DNA of 39,342 bases from Escherichia phage HC12: the sequence record OL362275.1; one strand, written 5' to 3'. Below are positions 2,211 through 39,105 of this stretch, piece after piece (within the stretch, counting starts at the first letter, position 1; each line of letters begins with the position of its first letter). The position numbers were made by a program, and so were the translations under genes. The notes below the pieces were generated by a model. The model was given only the letters and a program-made list of their open reading frames with translations. It made no database searches and was not told where the DNA came from.

Positions 2211-2315
2211 ATGAGCACTGCAATCATCTGGACTATCTCAGGCTTCGTAGCGTGGGGAATGTTTACTCTAGTCTGCAAACTACCGGTCCTTACTCAACTG
2301 TTATGGGGCTTATGA
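2211..2315 (+). CDS. Hypothetical small hydrophobic peptide (34 aa)
   Basis: GGAG RBS 7 nt upstream of ATG. Hand translation MSTAIIWTISGFVAWGMFTLVCKLPVLTQLLWGL. Its stop overlaps the next start as ATGA. Confidence 0.4.
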   Translation: MSTAIIWTISGFVAWGMFTLVCKLPVLTQLLWGL

Positions 2316-5876: not shown

Positions 5877-6092
5877 ATGAAATTTGCACACAAGCATACT
5901 GGCGTTAATGGTGGGACTCAAATCGTGACCGTAACAGAACACAACGGCAAGGGTCTGGTGAAGACCACGGTCATCCCTACAGAGATGTCCAAGCAGCTTA
6001 ACATCCCGTTCAAGACTCTTGTATATCTGGTCGAGTCCAGCCACGAGAAGTACCTGAAGGACGCAGTGTCCAAGCTGGGGAAGGACAAATGA
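5877..6092 (+). CDS. Hypothetical protein
   Basis: RBS AAGGAGAGAG then ATG. 71 aa ORF. Confidence 0.6.
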   Translation: MKFAHKHTGVNGGTQIVTVTEHNGKGLVKTTVIPTEMSKQLNIPFKTLVYLVESSHEKYLKDAVSKLGKDK

Positions 6093-6166
6093 CAGACATA
6101 CAGTTACTGGCCCTGTGGCTGGGAGCACTCGCAGTATTCACTTTAATCCAACGCAGAAGAGGTTAA
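6089..6166 (+). CDS. Hypothetical small hydrophobic peptide (25 aa), ATGA-coupled to the preceding gene
   Basis: Hand translation MTDIQLLALWLGALAVFTLIQRRRG. Very short, no independent RBS. Confidence 0.25.
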   Translation: MTDIQLLALWLGALAVFTLIQRRRG

Positions 6167-16143: not shown

Positions 16144-17006
16144 GCGAAAAGAAAATAGCTCTGGTTCTTGATGGTGACTATCTGGTCTTCTCTTCTATGG
16201 CTGCTTCCGAGGACGAGACTGACTGGGGCGATGACATCTGGACCCTTATCTGCGACCATGAGAAGGCTCGTCGCATCCTTGAGAACACCATCGCTGAAAT
16301 CGTTAAGAAGCGCAAGGCGTGGAAAGACGCTAAGATTGTGATGTGCTTCACTGACGATTACAACTGGCGTAAGGACGTCCTGCCTACCTATAAGGCCAAC
16401 CGTAAAGGTTCTCGCAAGCCTGTAGGTTACAAGAAGTTCGTAGCCGAAGTGATGGCTGACCCACGGTTCAACAGCTTCCTGCGTCCTACGCTTGAAGGCG
16501 ATGATTGTATGGGTATCATCGGGACCAGACCTCAGATTGTAGGCTGTGACCATGCTGTTCTGGTGTCCTGTGATAAGGACTTCAAGACCATCCCGAACTG
16601 TGAGTTCTTCTGGTTAACCACTGGTGAAATCCTGAGTCATACGACTGCTGAGGCAGACTACTGGCACATGGAGCAAACCATCAAGGGTGACACCACAGAT
16701 GGCTACGGTGGCATTCCGGGGATGGGTGAGGATACCACACGCGCGTTCCTTGACGAGCCGTACTACTTCGTACAGGAGAGCCGTGAGCTTAAGACTGGTA
16801 AGAACAAAGGCCAGATTAAGACTGAGTGGAAGAAGTATCCAAAGCGTGACGACATGACGCTGTGGGACTGCATGGTGACTCTGGCTGCTAAAGCTGGGAT
16901 GACCGAGGAGGAACTTCTTGTCCAAGCTCAGGTCGCTCGTATTTGTCGAGCCTCCGACTACGACCCTAAGTCCAAGGAGGTCATCCTATGGACACCATCC
17001 ATGTGA
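16134..17006 (+). CDS. 6: 5'-3' exonuclease
   Basis: Colinear with T7 gp6: LVLDGDYLVF, KANRKGSRKPVGY, SCDKDFKTIPNCEFFWLTTG, IKGDTTDGYGGIPG, WDCMVTLAAKAGMTEEEL. Start is ATG 16134 or GTG 16140 (GGAGG RBS favours GTG, overlapping the gp5.7 stop). Confidence 0.93.
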   Translation: MPVSEKKIALVLDGDYLVFSSMAASEDETDWGDDIWTLICDHEKARRILENTIAEIVKKRKAWKDAKIVMCFTDDYNWRKDVLPTYKANRKGSRKPVGYKKFVAEVMADPRFNSFLRPTLEGDDCMGIIGTRPQIVGCDHAVLVSCDKDFKTIPNCEFFWLTTGEILSHTTAEADYWHMEQTIKGDTTDGYGGIPGMGEDTTRAFLDEPYYFVQESRELKTGKNKGQIKTEWKKYPKRDDMTLWDCMVTLAAKAGMTEEELLVQAQVARICRASDYDPKSKEVILWTPSM

Positions 17007-17080
17007 TTTACTGGGCCGGACTTCTGGCCCTTTACTGCATGTACAAGTGGTTCGGGTCAAACAACCGTCCTAAACACTGA
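17003..17080 (+). CDS. Hypothetical small hydrophobic peptide (25 aa, GTG start overlapping the gene 6 stop)
   Basis: Hand translation (M)IYWAGLLALYCMYKWFGSNNRPKH. Speculative. Confidence 0.2.
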   Translation: MIYWAGLLALYCMYKWFGSNNRPKH

Positions 17081-21005: not shown

Positions 21006-21028
21006 ACTAAACTATCACTATAGGGAGA
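21006..21028 (+). promoter_or_regulatory. Phage RNA polymerase promoter (phi10-like), full consensus ending GGGAGA
   Basis: ACTAAACTATCACTATAGGGAGA, best copy of the family, upstream of the major capsid gene. Confidence 0.8.
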
Positions 21029-21130: not shown

Positions 21131-22180
21131 ATGGCAAACGTTCCGGGTCAGAAAGTTGGTACAGACCAAGGTAAAGGCAAATCTGGTTCCGACGCTCTGG
21201 CGTTGTTCCTGAAGGTCTTTGCTGGCGAAGTCCTGACAGCATTCACTCGCCGCTCTGTAACTGCTGACAAGCATATTGTCCGTACCATTCAGAACGGTAA
21301 GTCTGCTCAGTTCCCGGTCATGGGTCGCACCTCTGGTGTGTATCTGGCTCCGGGTGAGCGACTGTCCGATAAGCGTAAAGGTATCAAACATACCGAGAAA
21401 GTGATTACCATTGATGGTCTGCTGACTGCCGATGTGATGATTTTCGACATTGAAGACGCGATGAACCACTATGACGTGGCTGGCGAGTACTCCAACCAGT
21501 TGGGCGAAGCTCTGGCTATCGCTGCCGATGGTGCGGTACTGGCTGAGATGGCTATTCTGTGTAACCTACCGGCTGCATCTGATGAAAACATCGCTGGTCT
21601 TGGCAAAGCGTCTGTGCTGGAAGTTGGTACTAAAGCAGACCTGAACACTCCGGCTAAGCTGGGTGAAGCAATCATCGGTCAACTGACCATTGCTCGTGCG
21701 AAGCTGACATCCAACTACGTTCCTGCTGGCGACCGTTACTTCTACACCACGCCGGACAACTACTCTGCAATCCTCGCGGCTCTGATGCCGAACGCTGCTA
21801 ACTATGCTGCGCTGATTGACCCAGAGACTGGTAACATCCGTAACGTAATGGGCTTCGTGGTTGTTGAAGTCCCACACTTGACTCAGGGTGGTGCTGGGGA
21901 AACTCGTGGTGCCGATGGTATCACTATTGCGACTGGTCAGAAGCACGCCTTCCCAGCTACTGCTACTGGTGATGTTAAAGTTGCTCTGGACAACGTTGTG
22001 GGCCTGTTCTCTCACCGTTCTGCTGTAGGTACTGTTAAGCTGCGTGACTTGGCGCTGGAACGTGACCGTGACGTCGATGCTCAGGGCGACCTGATTGTTG
22101 GTAAGTACGCTATGGGTCACGGTGGTCTGCGTCCAGAAGCAGCAGGCGCACTGGTTTTCAGCCCAGCAGCAGCGGGTTAA
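21131..22180 (+). CDS. 10A: Major capsid protein
   Basis: 349 aa, colinear with T7 gp10A: LALFLKVFAGEVLTAF, HTEKVITIDGLLTADV, MPNAANYAALIDPE, KLRDLALER, AMGHGGLRPEAAG. Confidence 0.97.
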   Translation: MANVPGQKVGTDQGKGKSGSDALALFLKVFAGEVLTAFTRRSVTADKHIVRTIQNGKSAQFPVMGRTSGVYLAPGERLSDKRKGIKHTEKVITIDGLLTADVMIFDIEDAMNHYDVAGEYSNQLGEALAIAADGAVLAEMAILCNLPAASDENIAGLGKASVLEVGTKADLNTPAKLGEAIIGQLTIARAKLTSNYVPAGDRYFYTTPDNYSAILAALMPNAANYAALIDPETGNIRNVMGFVVVEVPHLTQGGAGETRGADGITIATGQKHAFPATATGDVKVALDNVVGLFSHRSAVGTVKLRDLALERDRDVDAQGDLIVGKYAMGHGGLRPEAAGALVFSPAAAG

Positions 22181-22443
22181 TGACCTTCAGGACTCTCTCT
22201 ACTGAGGGTCCTACCTTTGAAACCTTGGAGTCCTCAGTTGGTGTCAGTCTTAAGGTTGACTTCCCTGAGCTGGCAGATGTGACCGACTGGTCTCTGCTGG
22301 ATGTAACCATGCCGGATGGTGTGAGCTACTCTCGTAGAACTTCAAGTCTCTACTTCAAGGCCACCGATGCTGTGACAGGTCTTGTAACTGTTGGATATGA
22401 CGGGTCTACCGTTGGGTCATTCAACGTTTCGTTCACAAACTAA
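21131..22443 (+). CDS. 10B: Minor capsid protein 10B, predicted product of a -1 programmed frameshift near the end of 10A
   Basis: The -1 frame is open from 22105 to 22443 and overlaps the 10A terminus. G GTT TTC at 22153-22159 is the same heptamer as at the T7 10A/10B frameshift site. Confidence 0.5.
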
Positions 22444-22446
22444 TTG

Positions 22447-22487
22447 AAACCCCTTGGGTGCCTTCGGGTGCTTGAGGGGTTTTTTGC
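22447..22487 (+). terminator. Tphi-like intrinsic terminator
   Basis: AACCCCTTGGGTGCC-TTCG-GGTGCTTGAGGGGTT followed by TTTTTTG; close to the T7 Tphi terminator sequence. Confidence 0.85.
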
Positions 22488-22504
22488 TTAAAGTGAGGAT
22501 GATT

Positions 22505-22594
22505 ATGTTTTACTTACTTACAGCCTTGGGACTATTTGTTAGTTTCTGGGCGATTATATTATTAACCGGACCATGCAGTCCTTACGACAGATAG
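22505..22594 (+). CDS. Hypothetical small hydrophobic peptide (29 aa) downstream of Tphi
   Basis: GTGAGGA RBS 6 nt before ATG. Hand translation MFYLLTALGLFVSFWAIILLTGPCSPYDR. Under 60 aa, so absent from the track. Confidence 0.4.
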   Translation: MFYLLTALGLFVSFWAIILLTGPCSPYDR

Positions 22595-22602
22595 GAGGGA
22601 GT

Positions 22603-23169
22603 ATGGCTCAATACATTCCACTGAATGCTAACGATGACTTAGACGCTATCAACGATATGTTGGCTGCTATCGGTGAACCAGCAGTCCTACAACTTGACGA
22701 GGGGAACGCTGACGTCTCGAACGCTCAACGCATCCTGCATCGTGTCAATCGTCAGGTCCAAGCTAAAGGCTGGAACTTTAACATCAACGAAGCTGCTGTC
22801 CTGACACCTGATGTCCAAGACAATAGGATTCGATTCTTGCCGTCATACCTTCGCGTAATGACCGCTGGGGCCACCAGCTACTACAGTAACATGGGCGGAT
22901 ACCTGTACGACCTATCCACTCAGTCAACCACTTTCACCGACCCTATCACGGTAGAGCTTGTGGAGATGAAGCCATTCTCCGAGATGCCTGTGGTCTTCAG
23001 GGACTACATCGTTACCAAGGCTAGCCGTGAGTTCAACGCTAAGTTCTTCGGTAGCCCAGAGTCTGAACTGTACCTTCGTGAGCAGGAAGCAGAACTCTAC
23101 CAGCAGGTCATGGAATACGAGATGGATACTGGTCGCTACAACATGATGTCTGACATCGGGAGGGACTAA
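22603..23169 (+). CDS. 11: Tail tubular protein A
   Basis: Colinear with T7 gp11: DDLDAINDMLAAIGEP, RGWNFNI, YIVTKASREFNAKFFGSPE, MEYEMD. Start at ATG 22603 with GGAGGG RBS. Confidence 0.95.
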   Translation: MAQYIPLNANDDLDAINDMLAAIGEPAVLQLDEGNADVSNAQRILHRVNRQVQAKGWNFNINEAAVLTPDVQDNRIRFLPSYLRVMTAGATSYYSNMGGYLYDLSTQSTTFTDPITVELVEMKPFSEMPVVFRDYIVTKASREFNAKFFGSPESELYLREQEAELYQQVMEYEMDTGRYNMMSDIGRD

Positions 23170-23396
23170 TGGCTAGTCACAACCTGAAGATTCACCGCCA
23201 GCACTTTGGTCCGGTACAACTAGGTCTAAAGACAGCAGAGCTGAGACTTAACGACCGGGACTTTAAGGTTGGCGACTGGCTTATCCTGAATGAGTGGGAC
23301 AACGGGTATACTGGACAACAGGTAGCACGTAAGGTTGTCCACATTGCTGACGTTGGTGACATCGCTGAGGGATACGTCCTAATGAGTATGATTTAA
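23169..23396 (+). CDS. Small PUA/ASCH-like protein inserted between genes 11 and 12
   Basis: 75 aa MASHNLKIHRQHFGPVQLGLKTAELRLNDRDFKVGDWLILNEW...; the K.H...F......K..E.R.NDRDF.VGD.L.L.E pattern matches, from memory, small phage PUA-like domain proteins. TAATG coupling to gene 11. Confidence 0.65.
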   Translation: MASHNLKIHRQHFGPVQLGLKTAELRLNDRDFKVGDWLILNEWDNGYTGQQVARKVVHIADVGDIAEGYVLMSMI

Positions 23397-25787: not shown

Positions 25788-25810
25788 CCTTAACTATCAC
25801 TATAGGGACT
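25788..25810 (+). promoter_or_regulatory. Phage RNA polymerase promoter (phi13-like) flanked by a 12-bp inverted repeat
   Basis: CCTTAACTATCACTATAGGGACT. AAGGGCCTATAG at 25771-25782 is the exact reverse complement of CTATAGGCCCTT at 25809-25820. Confidence 0.7.
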
Positions 25811-29181: not shown

Positions 29182-29631
29182 ATGAAGAACGGGACAGCCA
29201 GTGAGAGACTGGCAGAACTGTCAGTAGCTGAAGAGTCTGGCTGTATCCGATTCACAGGCCACTTAGACGGAGAAGGATACGGAAGGATAATGGTCAACAG
29301 GGTCAAATACAGAGCGCATAGACTTGCTTACGAGCTTGCTAACGGTCCTATACCCGATGGCTACGTTGTTCGCCATAAGTGCGACAACCCGTCCTGTATA
29401 AACCCAAGCCACCTTGAAGTCGGCACCCAAGCTGATAACATAAAGGATAAGGTGACTAGAGGTCGCCAAGCGTTAGGACGCTTCGTAGGATCGTCTAAGC
29501 TCACTGAGGAAAGTGTGCGTGATATAAGGTCCAGCGACCTAAAGGTTTCACTCTTGGCTGAACGCTATGGAGTGAGTACGGTTTCTATTAGAAATATCTT
29601 GAGGAGAAAGACATGGCGACACGTGGAGTAA
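29182..29631 (+). CDS. HNH homing endonuclease (free-standing), inserted between genes 15 and 16
   Basis: GYGRIMVNRVKYRAHRLAYELANGPIPDGYVVRHKCDNPSCINPSHLEVGTQADN is a classic HNH motif; C-terminal helix-turn-helix-like LAERYGVSTVSIRNILRRK. Overlaps the gene 16 start by 19 nt. Confidence 0.85.
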   Translation: MKNGTASERLAELSVAEESGCIRFTGHLDGEGYGRIMVNRVKYRAHRLAYELANGPIPDGYVVRHKCDNPSCINPSHLEVGTQADNIKDKVTRGRQALGRFVGSSKLTEESVRDIRSSDLKVSLLAERYGVSTVSIRNILRRKTWRHVE

Positions 29632-35889: not shown

Positions 35890-36084
35890 ATGATTGAGTT
35901 AGACTTCAAGAATGAGGTCCTCAAAGCCTCGCCTATCGTCGGGACCGCTGCGGCTGATGGTGCCAGTCGGTTCTTCTTTGGGCTAACGCTCAACGAATGG
36001 TTCTACGTCGCTGCTATCGCGTACACCGTGGTGCAGATTGGCGTCCTAATTTACAAGACGATTAAGAGCGGAGGTAAGACATGA
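35890..36084 (+). CDS. 17.5: Holin (class II)
   Basis: 64 aa, near-colinear with T7 gp17.5: LDFKNEVLKASPIVGTAAADGASRFFFGLTLNEWFYVAAIAYTVVQIG. Confidence 0.9.
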   Translation: MIELDFKNEVLKASPIVGTAAADGASRFFFGLTLNEWFYVAAIAYTVVQIGVLIYKTIKSGGKT

Positions 36085-36440: not shown

Positions 36441-36890
36441 ATGCTCGAATTTTTAAAGAGAGCGGCTCCGTGGTTACTTGCAGCAGTGATGTTTGCTGGT
36501 GGCTACCACACCGCTAACAATAAGTGGGAGGCTAAGGTCAATGCAGAATACACCTCGAATCTTAAGGCATCGGAAGATACAAGGCTTGCTGTCCAAGCTG
36601 AAGTCAACAAAGTGTCCAAACGGTTTCAGGACGAAATGTCCTCGCTGGAAGGCAGCACTGATAGGATTATTGCTGACCTTCAGTCTGACAATAAGCGGTT
36701 GCGCATCCGAGTCAAACCAACGAGTGGAACCACGCAAAGTGACGGTCGATGCTTCATTGATGGTTACGCCGAACTTGACGAACGAGATGCTAAACGTCTT
36801 ATCGCCATCGGAGTGAAAGGAGACAAGTGGATTAAGGCCCTTCAAGACACTGTGAGAGCCTTACAGCAAGAGAAGGAGGTGACGCATTGA
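36441..36890 (+). CDS. 18.5: Rz-like i-spanin
   Basis: 149 aa, N-terminal TM segment; MLEFL..., [53 protein letters not shown] align with T7 gp18.5. Confidence 0.9.
36541..36816 (+). CDS. 18.7: Rz1-like o-spanin lipoprotein embedded in the +1 frame of Rz
   Basis: Embedded +1-frame ORF with hydrophobic stretch [13 protein letters not shown] followed by lipobox ISGC. ATG 36541 has a GGAGG RBS but gives a 53-residue pre-Cys leader; true start uncertain. Confidence 0.5.
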   Translation: MQNTPRILRHRKIQGLLSKLKSTKCPNGFRTKCPRWKAALIGLLLTFSLTISGCASESNQRVEPRKVTVDASLMVTPNLTNEMLNVLSPSE

Positions 36891-38946: not shown

Positions 38947-39105
38947 ATGGCAAAGACCAAAGCTGTACTTAAAGCTCTGGCGACCAATCGAGCTACATAC
39001 AGGTTTCTTGCTGCTGTTCTACTTGCTGCTGGCTCTACTGCTGGAAGTCAGTGGGTTGGGTGGGTCGAGACTCTCGTATGTTCTCTGGTGTCTGAGTGTC
39101 GTTAA
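38947..39105 (+). CDS. Hypothetical small membrane protein (gene 19.5 position)
   Basis: AGGAGG RBS. Hand-translated 52-aa ORF MAKTKAVLKALATNRATYRFLAAVLLAAGSTAGSQWVGWVETLVCSLVSECR with a hydrophobic core. Confidence 0.5.
   Translation: MAKTKAVLKALATNRATYRFLAAVLLAAGSTAGSQWVGWVETLVCSLVSECR

Follow-up and report, generated by a model that had tools for sequence, protein, structure and literature searches.

The genome of Escherichia phage HC12 (OL362275.1), analyzed here as one window of 39,342 nucleotides (nt), is that of a Kayfunavirus (K1F-like Studiervirinae), and its left 20 kb are 98% identical to Escherichia phage 6925. Between a terminator homologous to Tphi of phage T7 and gene 11, the window holds a small open reading frame (ORF) of 29 codons at a place where T7 has no gene. 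Is this small ORF a gene and, if so, what kind of product does it encode? An earlier note, made from the sequence alone, had left two options, namely a single-helix peptide, which could be a membrane modulator or a toxin, or an annotation artefact. Comparison with related phages makes it almost certain that the 29 codons form a true phage gene, although a dispensable one. On the same sequence-based grounds, it is very likely a genuine, translated, accessory late gene for a 29-residue single-pass inner-membrane micro-protein that acts in trans.

The small ORF and its homologues

The elements of the locus are located as follows in the window:

22446..22485, + strand: Tphi-homologous intrinsic terminator, a 17-bp hairpin (22446-22483) with a UUCG-type loop followed by a T-run, found by fold prediction and terminator scan
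22495..22499, + strand: Shine-Dalgarno (SD) sequence GAGGA of the small ORF, 5 nt ahead of the ATG at 22505 (AAGGAGG or GAGGAG at the same distance in relatives)
22505..22594, + strand: small ORF of 29 codons plus TAG, with ATG at 22505-22507, TAG at 22592-22594 and the peptide MFYLLTALGLFVSFWAIILLTGPCSPYDR
22508..22567, + strand: predicted transmembrane helix, codons 2-21, on the basis of hydrophobicity, AlphaFold2 and the replacement pattern
22565..22591, + strand: polar tail by the membrane, codons 21-29, TGPCSPYDR, with the family pattern [TS][GS]PxS(P)YD[RK]
22594..22601, + strand: SD of gene 11, GGAGGGAG, overlapping the last base of the TAG of the small ORF
22603..23169, + strand: gene 11 (tail tubular protein A), the 3' neighbour in every genome with the small ORF

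The earlier note had described the ORF and its translation, a good SD, its placement between the terminator and gene 11 and the lack of a T7 counterpart, and each of these points was confirmed. Specifically, the frame and peptide are exact in the sequence and in the list of reading frames, the SD is found at the spacing given above, and the hairpin with its T-run shows a base-for-base alignment to T7 Tphi (AACCCCTTGGG...CTTGAGGGGTTTTTTGCT) and was aligned to K1F and Przondovirus too. The T7 record gives 24210 for Tphi and 24228 for the start of gene 11 and shows no gene between them. Sites homologous to the hairpin also carry a 'terminator' annotation in other records. The small ORF begins 20 nt past the terminator and ends 8 nt short of gene 11, and the window around it reads ...GGGGTTTTTTGCTTAAAGTGAGGATGATTATGTTTTAC.... 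The SD overlaps a further in-frame ATG, at 22499, which relatives do not have (L013: ...GAGACTTATG); therefore, 22505 was taken as the conserved start.

Searches with tblastn against 50,697 phage records retrieved full-length matches at the same slot in four groups from three lineages. These comprised Kayfunavirus allele A (14 records, their peptides identical or nearly so), Kayfunavirus allele B (LM33_P1-like, about 47 records, 52-59% identical to allele A), Przondovirus (6 records) and Molineuxvirinae of Klebsiella and Proteus (17 records), and pairwise BLASTP of the window peptide gave E values of 6e-11 against Przondovirus and 2e-8 against Molineuxvirinae. The allele A peptides are MFYLLTALGLFVSFWAIILLTGPCSPYDR and MCYLLIALGLFVSFWVTMLLTGPCSPYDR, those of allele B follow the pattern M[FV]LIYT[GW]L[AV]LFVLFW[AS]YLL[PS]SSPSS[PAL]YD[RHC], Przondovirus carries MFIVLSAVSLAVATMLYVVVTGPCSPYDK and variants, and the Molineuxvirinae form (MYYLLCVTLLLFASFWCYVLATGPVSVAERRDNANSK) is 37 amino acids (aa) long, with a tail that overlaps the start of gene 11.

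The ORF was intact in 21 of the 22 ORF-bearing slot sequences that were read, including that of phage SR04, which had appeared truncated by tblastn. In each of them an SD of the AAGGAGG or GAGGA type lies 5-8 nt ahead of the ATG, the terminator comes directly before the ORF, and the ORF ends at or within the ribosome-binding site (RBS) of gene 11. Its stop and the start of gene 11 are 8 nt apart in the window and 9-11 nt apart in the remaining Studiervirinae alleles; in Molineuxvirinae the ORF overlaps the gene 11 start by 32 nt. The five other frames hold stops in nearly all homologous sequences. Between alleles A and B the proportion of differing synonymous sites (pS) is 0.84-0.96, i.e., saturated, and that of non-synonymous sites (pN) is 0.31-0.35; pN/pS is 0.29-0.42 for the window against other Kayfunavirus sequences (0.29 against L013) and 0.32-0.33 within Przondovirus, in which none of 14 variable columns falls on a second codon position. 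The earlier note had made the case for a gene depend on conservation of the frame in related phages; the frame, its length of 29 codons, the SD and the helix are kept in about 84 further genomes of the three lineages. This conservation led us to reject the artefact and, together with the helix predicted by AlphaFold2, supports the single-helix peptide.

Further searches delimited the family. Degenerate DNA scans for the tail motif TGPCSPYD across IMG/VR, metagenomes and bacterial genomes yielded three true matches in IMG/VR (and two off-frame by chance), while 2 of 56 matches in metagenomes were true, both on T7-like contigs of 38-39 kb. Among bacterial genomes none of the 27 matches was true and the exact motif was not found in 185,579 species genomes, which indicates that neither hosts nor prophages carry a copy with this motif; the DNA of the small ORF likewise had no match in 5,426 complete E. 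coli genomes. The peptide in a 46-aa form extended to a TTG had no match in large protein databases, and a 31-aa form retrieved only one spurious repeat protein from 1.84 billion representatives, although such collections probably do not contain 29-mers. No Rfam match was obtained in the region, and no description of the small ORF was found in the full-text literature.

Small phage proteins are systematically under-annotated, and this one has been variously called, skipped or mis-framed and is not represented in PHROGs or Pfam. In GenBank it appears as a 90-nt 'hypothetical protein' in several records and is skipped in others. The record of phage Pipis (PV714130) has a 34-aa 'single transmembrane domain' coding sequence at 370-474 in another frame, which overlaps both the terminator and the 29-codon ORF (401-490); the frame annotated there is closed in allele A and seems to be a mis-call of this very locus.

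The peptide, its expression and its distribution

The peptide consists of an uncharged N-terminal helix of about 20 residues, a Gly-Pro break and an 8-residue polar tail, (T/S)(G/S)PxS(P)YD(R/K). Its best 19-residue Kyte-Doolittle segment scores 2.31 (2.1-2.6 across all homologues), and AlphaFold2, run on the 31-aa form as a single sequence, predicted one helix at residues 2-23 with a predicted local distance difference test (pLDDT) score of 94-96 up to the Gly-Pro and lower confidence in the tail. Between groups, 9-15 of 19 helix residues (47-79%) are replaced with no gain of a charged or amide residue, the sole exception being a Pro at the helix boundary. The tail is the one sharp motif of the family. 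Pro23 and Ser25 are invariant in the alignment, TGPCSPYD is identical in Kayfunavirus A and Przondovirus, and the final residue is R or K. At the nucleotide level these two groups are 83% identical over the last 30 nt versus 45% over the first 60 nt.

With this layout the peptide would insert in the inner membrane, most likely in the N-out/C-in orientation because the longer tail of the Molineuxvirinae is net positive. It may then act in trans through its conserved membrane-adjacent tail on a membrane-associated partner of the host or the phage, with possible effects that include the tuning of envelope or lysis physiology, exclusion, and the countering of membrane-based host defence.

Expression of the small ORF would depend on the late operon, of which the relevant promoter is the following:

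21007..21026, + strand: late promoter of the phage RNA polymerase (RNAP) before gene 10, consensus CTAAACTATCACTATAGGGA, the nearest promoter 5' of the small ORF (the next is at 25789)

Promoters of this CTAAACTATCACTATAGGGA type number 11 in the window (2848, 6169, 7856, 8834, 10976, 17134, 19972, 21007, 25789, 33497 and 38746), and a scan of the window with the phage's own consensus found none between 21007 and 25789. The window scan detected neither a sigma-70-like site 5' of the small ORF on the + strand nor a terminator 3' of it. On this map, therefore, the small ORF, gene 11 and gene 12 would be transcribed only by read-through of the terminator, as in T7. A candidate internal promoter at 22580-22601 (TACGAC...ATAGG), superficially of the T7 type, was rejected as the consensus has no match there even at 3 mismatches. 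The small ORF is the first cistron past the terminator on the read-through RNA, and late phage-RNAP transcripts reading through Tphi would carry it on the same mRNA as the tail genes 11 and 12.

In relatives that lack the ORF, the same leader, SD and ATG directly serve gene 11. The small ORF would thus take over the strong SD and ATG of gene 11 and supply a second SD for that gene, which overlaps its own stop. From this arrangement we infer that the peptide is made late, in amounts roughly like those of gp11, with ribosomes continuing to gene 11. In phage ZG49 (IMG/VR 2974604219, 1840-1900) the small ORF and its SD are kept and most of the Tphi hairpin is gone (...CGCCTGAGTGGTTTTTTTTGCTT...), so the ORF and gene 11 would be transcribed there without attenuation.

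The distribution of the small ORF is patchy. Many close relatives have the terminator joined straight to gene 11, as GCTTAAAGTGAGAGGAGACTTATGGCT in K1F and others and as GCTTAAGGAGGGCCTATGGCT in others, which identifies the gene as accessory. Among seven complete Kayfunavirus genomes compared with the window, the ORF is found in three (vB_EcoP_F, 6925 and LM33_P1) and not in four (K1F, SH3, GA2A and IMM-002); it is also absent from most relatives in IMG/VR. The identity of gp11 to that of the window is 97-100% in six of the seven genomes, with or without the ORF, and 89% in IMM-002. The difference between presence and absence is an exact block from ATG to ATG of about 98 nt, comprising 28 codons, the stop, the new SD and a spacer, and the gene appears to be gained or lost in a precise ATG-to-ATG event between duplicated RBS-ATG junctions. 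In Przondovirus both junctions are direct repeats (AGGAGGCTTTATGTT), which would enable recombination to remove or insert the block cleanly.

Divergent alleles occur inside genomes that are otherwise 97-100% identical. Against phage 6925, the flanks of the window are 97-100% identical, and identity falls to 66-80% over 22100-22600 and to 77% over 22900-23000. As the two phages hold different alleles of the small ORF, the stretch 22100-22600 is a mosaic patch. Both patches of low identity are due to recombination, and together they take in a 10B-like ORF, the small ORF and part of gene 11. Across subfamilies, the small peptide of the window is 53% identical to that of the Molineuxvirinae phage KPN7, whereas gp10 and gp11 are 25% and 21% identical. 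This far greater similarity of the small peptide implies lateral movement between Studiervirinae and Molineuxvirinae into the same slot.

A polymorphism of alleles plus a null would be typical of host-interaction genes. More tentatively, and with the odds against it, the ORF and its replacement RBS may form a mobile 'micro-cassette' that passes between subfamilies of T7-like phages into one exact slot and whose product docks by its tail on one particular machine in the inner membrane of Enterobacteriaceae. The target, just as speculatively, could be a membrane-anchored effector of defence or abortive infection, an enzyme of envelope biogenesis, or the phage's own holin. If this were true, two divergent alleles and a null in near-identical genomes would reflect an arms race with the target.

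The size (25-50 aa) and the plan of an uncharged helix with a short polar tail are shared with single-pass inner-membrane small proteins of enterobacteria such as KdpF (29 aa), AcrZ, MgtS, PmrR and MgrB, as are the strong SD and a coding position adjacent to or inside operons, and these proteins serve as our working model for the action of the peptide. The small ORF differs from them in being phage-encoded and late and in having no similarity to an NCBIfam or Pfam family. The enterobacterial proteins were compared by library searches only. Type I toxins (TisB with 29 aa, Ibs, ShoB, Ldr and Hok) are alike in length and in having a hydrophobic single helix, but the small ORF lies in the late structural operon of a lytic phage, with a strong and unobstructed SD. 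On the minus strand nearby, one weak sigma-70-like site (9/12) was detected at 22652-22625, inside gene 11, and no other antisense promoter or antisense RNA was seen. Nothing in the analysis favoured toxicity.

Late expression and membrane targeting are also features of the lysis and envelope peptides of phages (the T7 class II holin gp17.5, the spanins gp18.5/18.7 and the single-gene lysis peptides of single-stranded RNA phages), and a role in lysis timing is a candidate function. The small ORF was rejected as a holin itself, because it has no Pfam or PHROGs holin match and a gp17.5-type holin is present regardless of it. A holin (35890-36084) and an Rz-like spanin (36441-36890) occur in the window and in all seven relatives, with or without the small ORF, and the peptide has one helix and 29 aa versus 64 aa for the class II holin of the window. 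Finally, the small ORF resembles morons as a dispensable, patchy and laterally transferred gene between two conserved structural genes. It differs in having no promoter or terminator of its own, in taking the RBS of gene 11 and bringing a new one, and in its length of 98 nt, far below that of classical morons. It is an accessory insertion between core genes and not a moron in the strict sense of an autonomous transcription unit.

In summary of its place among known genes, the small ORF founds a new unnamed family of a familiar kind, the phage-encoded single-pass micro-protein, and involves no new principle. Small peptides that span the membrane once are well known as a class; the gene will not surprise specialists, yet it is worth annotating. 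As a conserved, selected and laterally exchanged gene, it adds to the pan-genome of Autographiviridae a defined family with about 85 members in four sequence groups, all of them located between Tphi and gene 11. Near-isogenic phages with allele A, allele B or an exact null constitute a natural experiment in which function is directly testable, with lysis timing, exclusion, and host range or the evasion of defence as the candidate functions. Several of the phages (specific for K1, O25b or Klebsiella capsules) are candidates for therapy, so that an unrecognised, putatively membrane-active gene is relevant to their characterisation.

Alternative explanations

Several observations weigh against a translated micro-protein acting in trans. 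The peptide had no significant match in Pfam, PHROGs v4, NCBIfam, PADLOC or PDB, the best being generic helix matches with E values of at least 0.2, and a function cannot be transferred from any family library. No Ribo-seq or mass-spectrometry data set or paper on the small ORF was found in the literature searched. No gene shared its presence pattern in the small sample of seven genomes, which means that no specific pathway is indicated, and its frequent absence shows that it is not needed for growth on laboratory hosts. The proposed topology is based solely on the charge distribution in one group of homologues, the Molineuxvirinae. MZ234011, the exception among the slot sequences read, has a 1-nt deletion in codon 26 that alters the last residues. 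Within allele B most changes are non-synonymous and clustered in the tail (P26A/L, R29H/C), and several pairs have a pN/pS of about 1, calculated from very few changes; in that lineage, therefore, the motif is under relaxed constraint or is diversifying.

How well do other explanations account for the same locus? A chance ORF or gene-caller artefact, with the real role of the spacer in the DNA or RNA (terminator spacing, a processing site or a recombination hot spot), would be compatible with the annotation record: an ORF of exactly 90 nt is accepted by Prodigal-type callers, many records do not annotate it, and that of Pipis annotates another frame. Chance in a single genome is also not negligible, since 2.3% of shuffles of 22487-22602 yield an ATG-started ORF of at least 29 codons and 4 of 94 short six-frame ORFs in the window (about 4%) match its hydrophobicity. 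The significance of the ORF derives from its conservation across divergent genomes. Frame, start, length and SD are kept even where 39 of 87 nt differ, the other frames have stops (with that of Pipis closed in allele A), and synonymous changes are in excess. The region contains no phage promoter and no significant RNA structure (fold z = -1.5), and an RNA element was rejected on the grounds of this fold, the Rfam result and the fact that the RBS of gene 11 is not sequestered. Conservation thus largely refutes this explanation, and we regard it as very improbable.

A somewhat better, though still improbable, account is that of a cis-acting upstream ORF whose translation itself delivers ribosomes to gene 11 or withholds them, either through reinitiation after termination or through stalling on the stop codon that overlaps the gene 11 SD, and so sets the level of gp11 once Tphi has been read through. 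The coupling geometry is conserved, with the stop on the gene 11 SD at 8-11 nt from the ATG in Studiervirinae and the 32-nt overlap in Molineuxvirinae. In addition, the conserved residues are C-terminal, and the arrest peptides TnaC and SecM have their key residues at the C-terminus. On the other hand, the predicted accessibility of the gene 11 SD and AUG is equal with the ORF (0.39-0.51) and without it (0.31-0.53; 0.63 in T7), regional RNA folding is ordinary, and gene 11 of ORF-less relatives has an equally strong SD. A regulatory arrest or leader peptide of the SecM, TnaC or MifM type was rejected because the gene 11 RBS is free and the region is not unusually structured. A pure role in cis would not require a 20-residue uncharged helix to be retained through 47-79% replacement, and a 29-residue peptide would still be inside the ribosome tunnel at termination, so that it could not sense membrane insertion. 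Coupling to gene 11 may nevertheless be a secondary effect of the small ORF. A frameshift fusion of the transmembrane segment with gp11 was also considered, as the frame of gene 11 is open back to 22573 in the window, but was rejected, since allele B has a TGA within TATGAC and the open frame is not conserved.

An exported or processed peptide, in which the hydrophobic N-terminus is a signal sequence and the C-terminus (CSPYDR or SSPYDR) is released as a lipopeptide through Cys24 or as an arbitrium-like signal, has about as slim a chance as the artefact. The arrangement of a hydrophobic N-terminus and a conserved polar C-terminus of 6-8 residues resembles that of precursors with a signal and a mature part, and Cys24 follows L-T-G-P in allele A and Przondovirus. 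However, the n-region has no positive charge, the hydrophobic stretch of about 20 residues has the length of a transmembrane helix and exceeds the h-region of a signal peptide, and there is no AxA-type cleavage site. L-T-G-P-C, with Pro at -1, does not fit the lipobox [LVI][ASTVI][GAS]C and the Cys is missing in allele B and Molineuxvirinae; a bacterial lipoprotein was rejected for these reasons and for the lack of a basic n-region. Moreover, no receptor-like gene co-varies with the ORF and the phages are strictly lytic. Our preferred reading is a single-pass membrane micro-protein that acts in trans.

Other small ORFs and accessory insertions

The earlier note had listed four further ORFs for small peptides. 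All of them exist, at 2211-2315 (34 aa), 6089-6166 (25 aa), 38947-39105 (52 aa) and, in place of the position 17003 given for it, 16988-17080 (30 aa). The three at 6089-6166, 16988-17080 and 38947-39105 (+ strand) are present in all seven Kayfunavirus genomes with 72-100% identity, and are therefore core small genes, unlike the ORF at 22505 (three of seven). They share with it a short length, the + strand and one hydrophobic stretch, but no sequence resemblance was apparent by inspection. The ORF at 16988-17080 overlaps the end of gene 6. The hydrophobic 34-aa ORF at 2211-2315 (+ strand) has relatives in 6925 and LM33_P1 only. It lies across the 5' part of a longer ORF with a GTG start (2141-2515), of which the portion from an ATG onwards (2303-2515) is conserved in all seven genomes, and it is doubtful whether the 34-aa ORF is a gene.

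Three further features are accessory or variable as well. Overlapping the gene 10A stop (ATGA) in another frame, an 87-aa ORF at 22180-22443 (+ strand) has no Pfam match, is 80% identical to its counterpart in 6925 and 47% to that in GA2A, and is not found in K1F, SH3 and vB_EcoP_F, which have another C-terminal extension. It is probably a 10B-type capsid extension produced via frameshifting. Between genes 11 and 12, where T7 has no gene, the ORF at 23169-23396 (+ strand, 75 aa) matches DUF3850/ASCH (Pfam E value 2e-19), and RefSeq relatives annotate it as 'RNA-binding protein'. The phages vB_EcoP_F, 6925, LM33_P1 and GA2A carry this ORF and K1F, SH3 and IMM-002 do not, which makes it, after the small ORF, the second accessory insertion among the tail genes. 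Finally, the 149-aa ORF at 29182-29631 (+ strand), between the internal-virion genes 15 and 16, resembles homing endonucleases of the HNH_3/His-Me finger type; among the seven genomes only GA2A has a relative (57%), in the same place, and the ORF is probably a mobile homing endonuclease.

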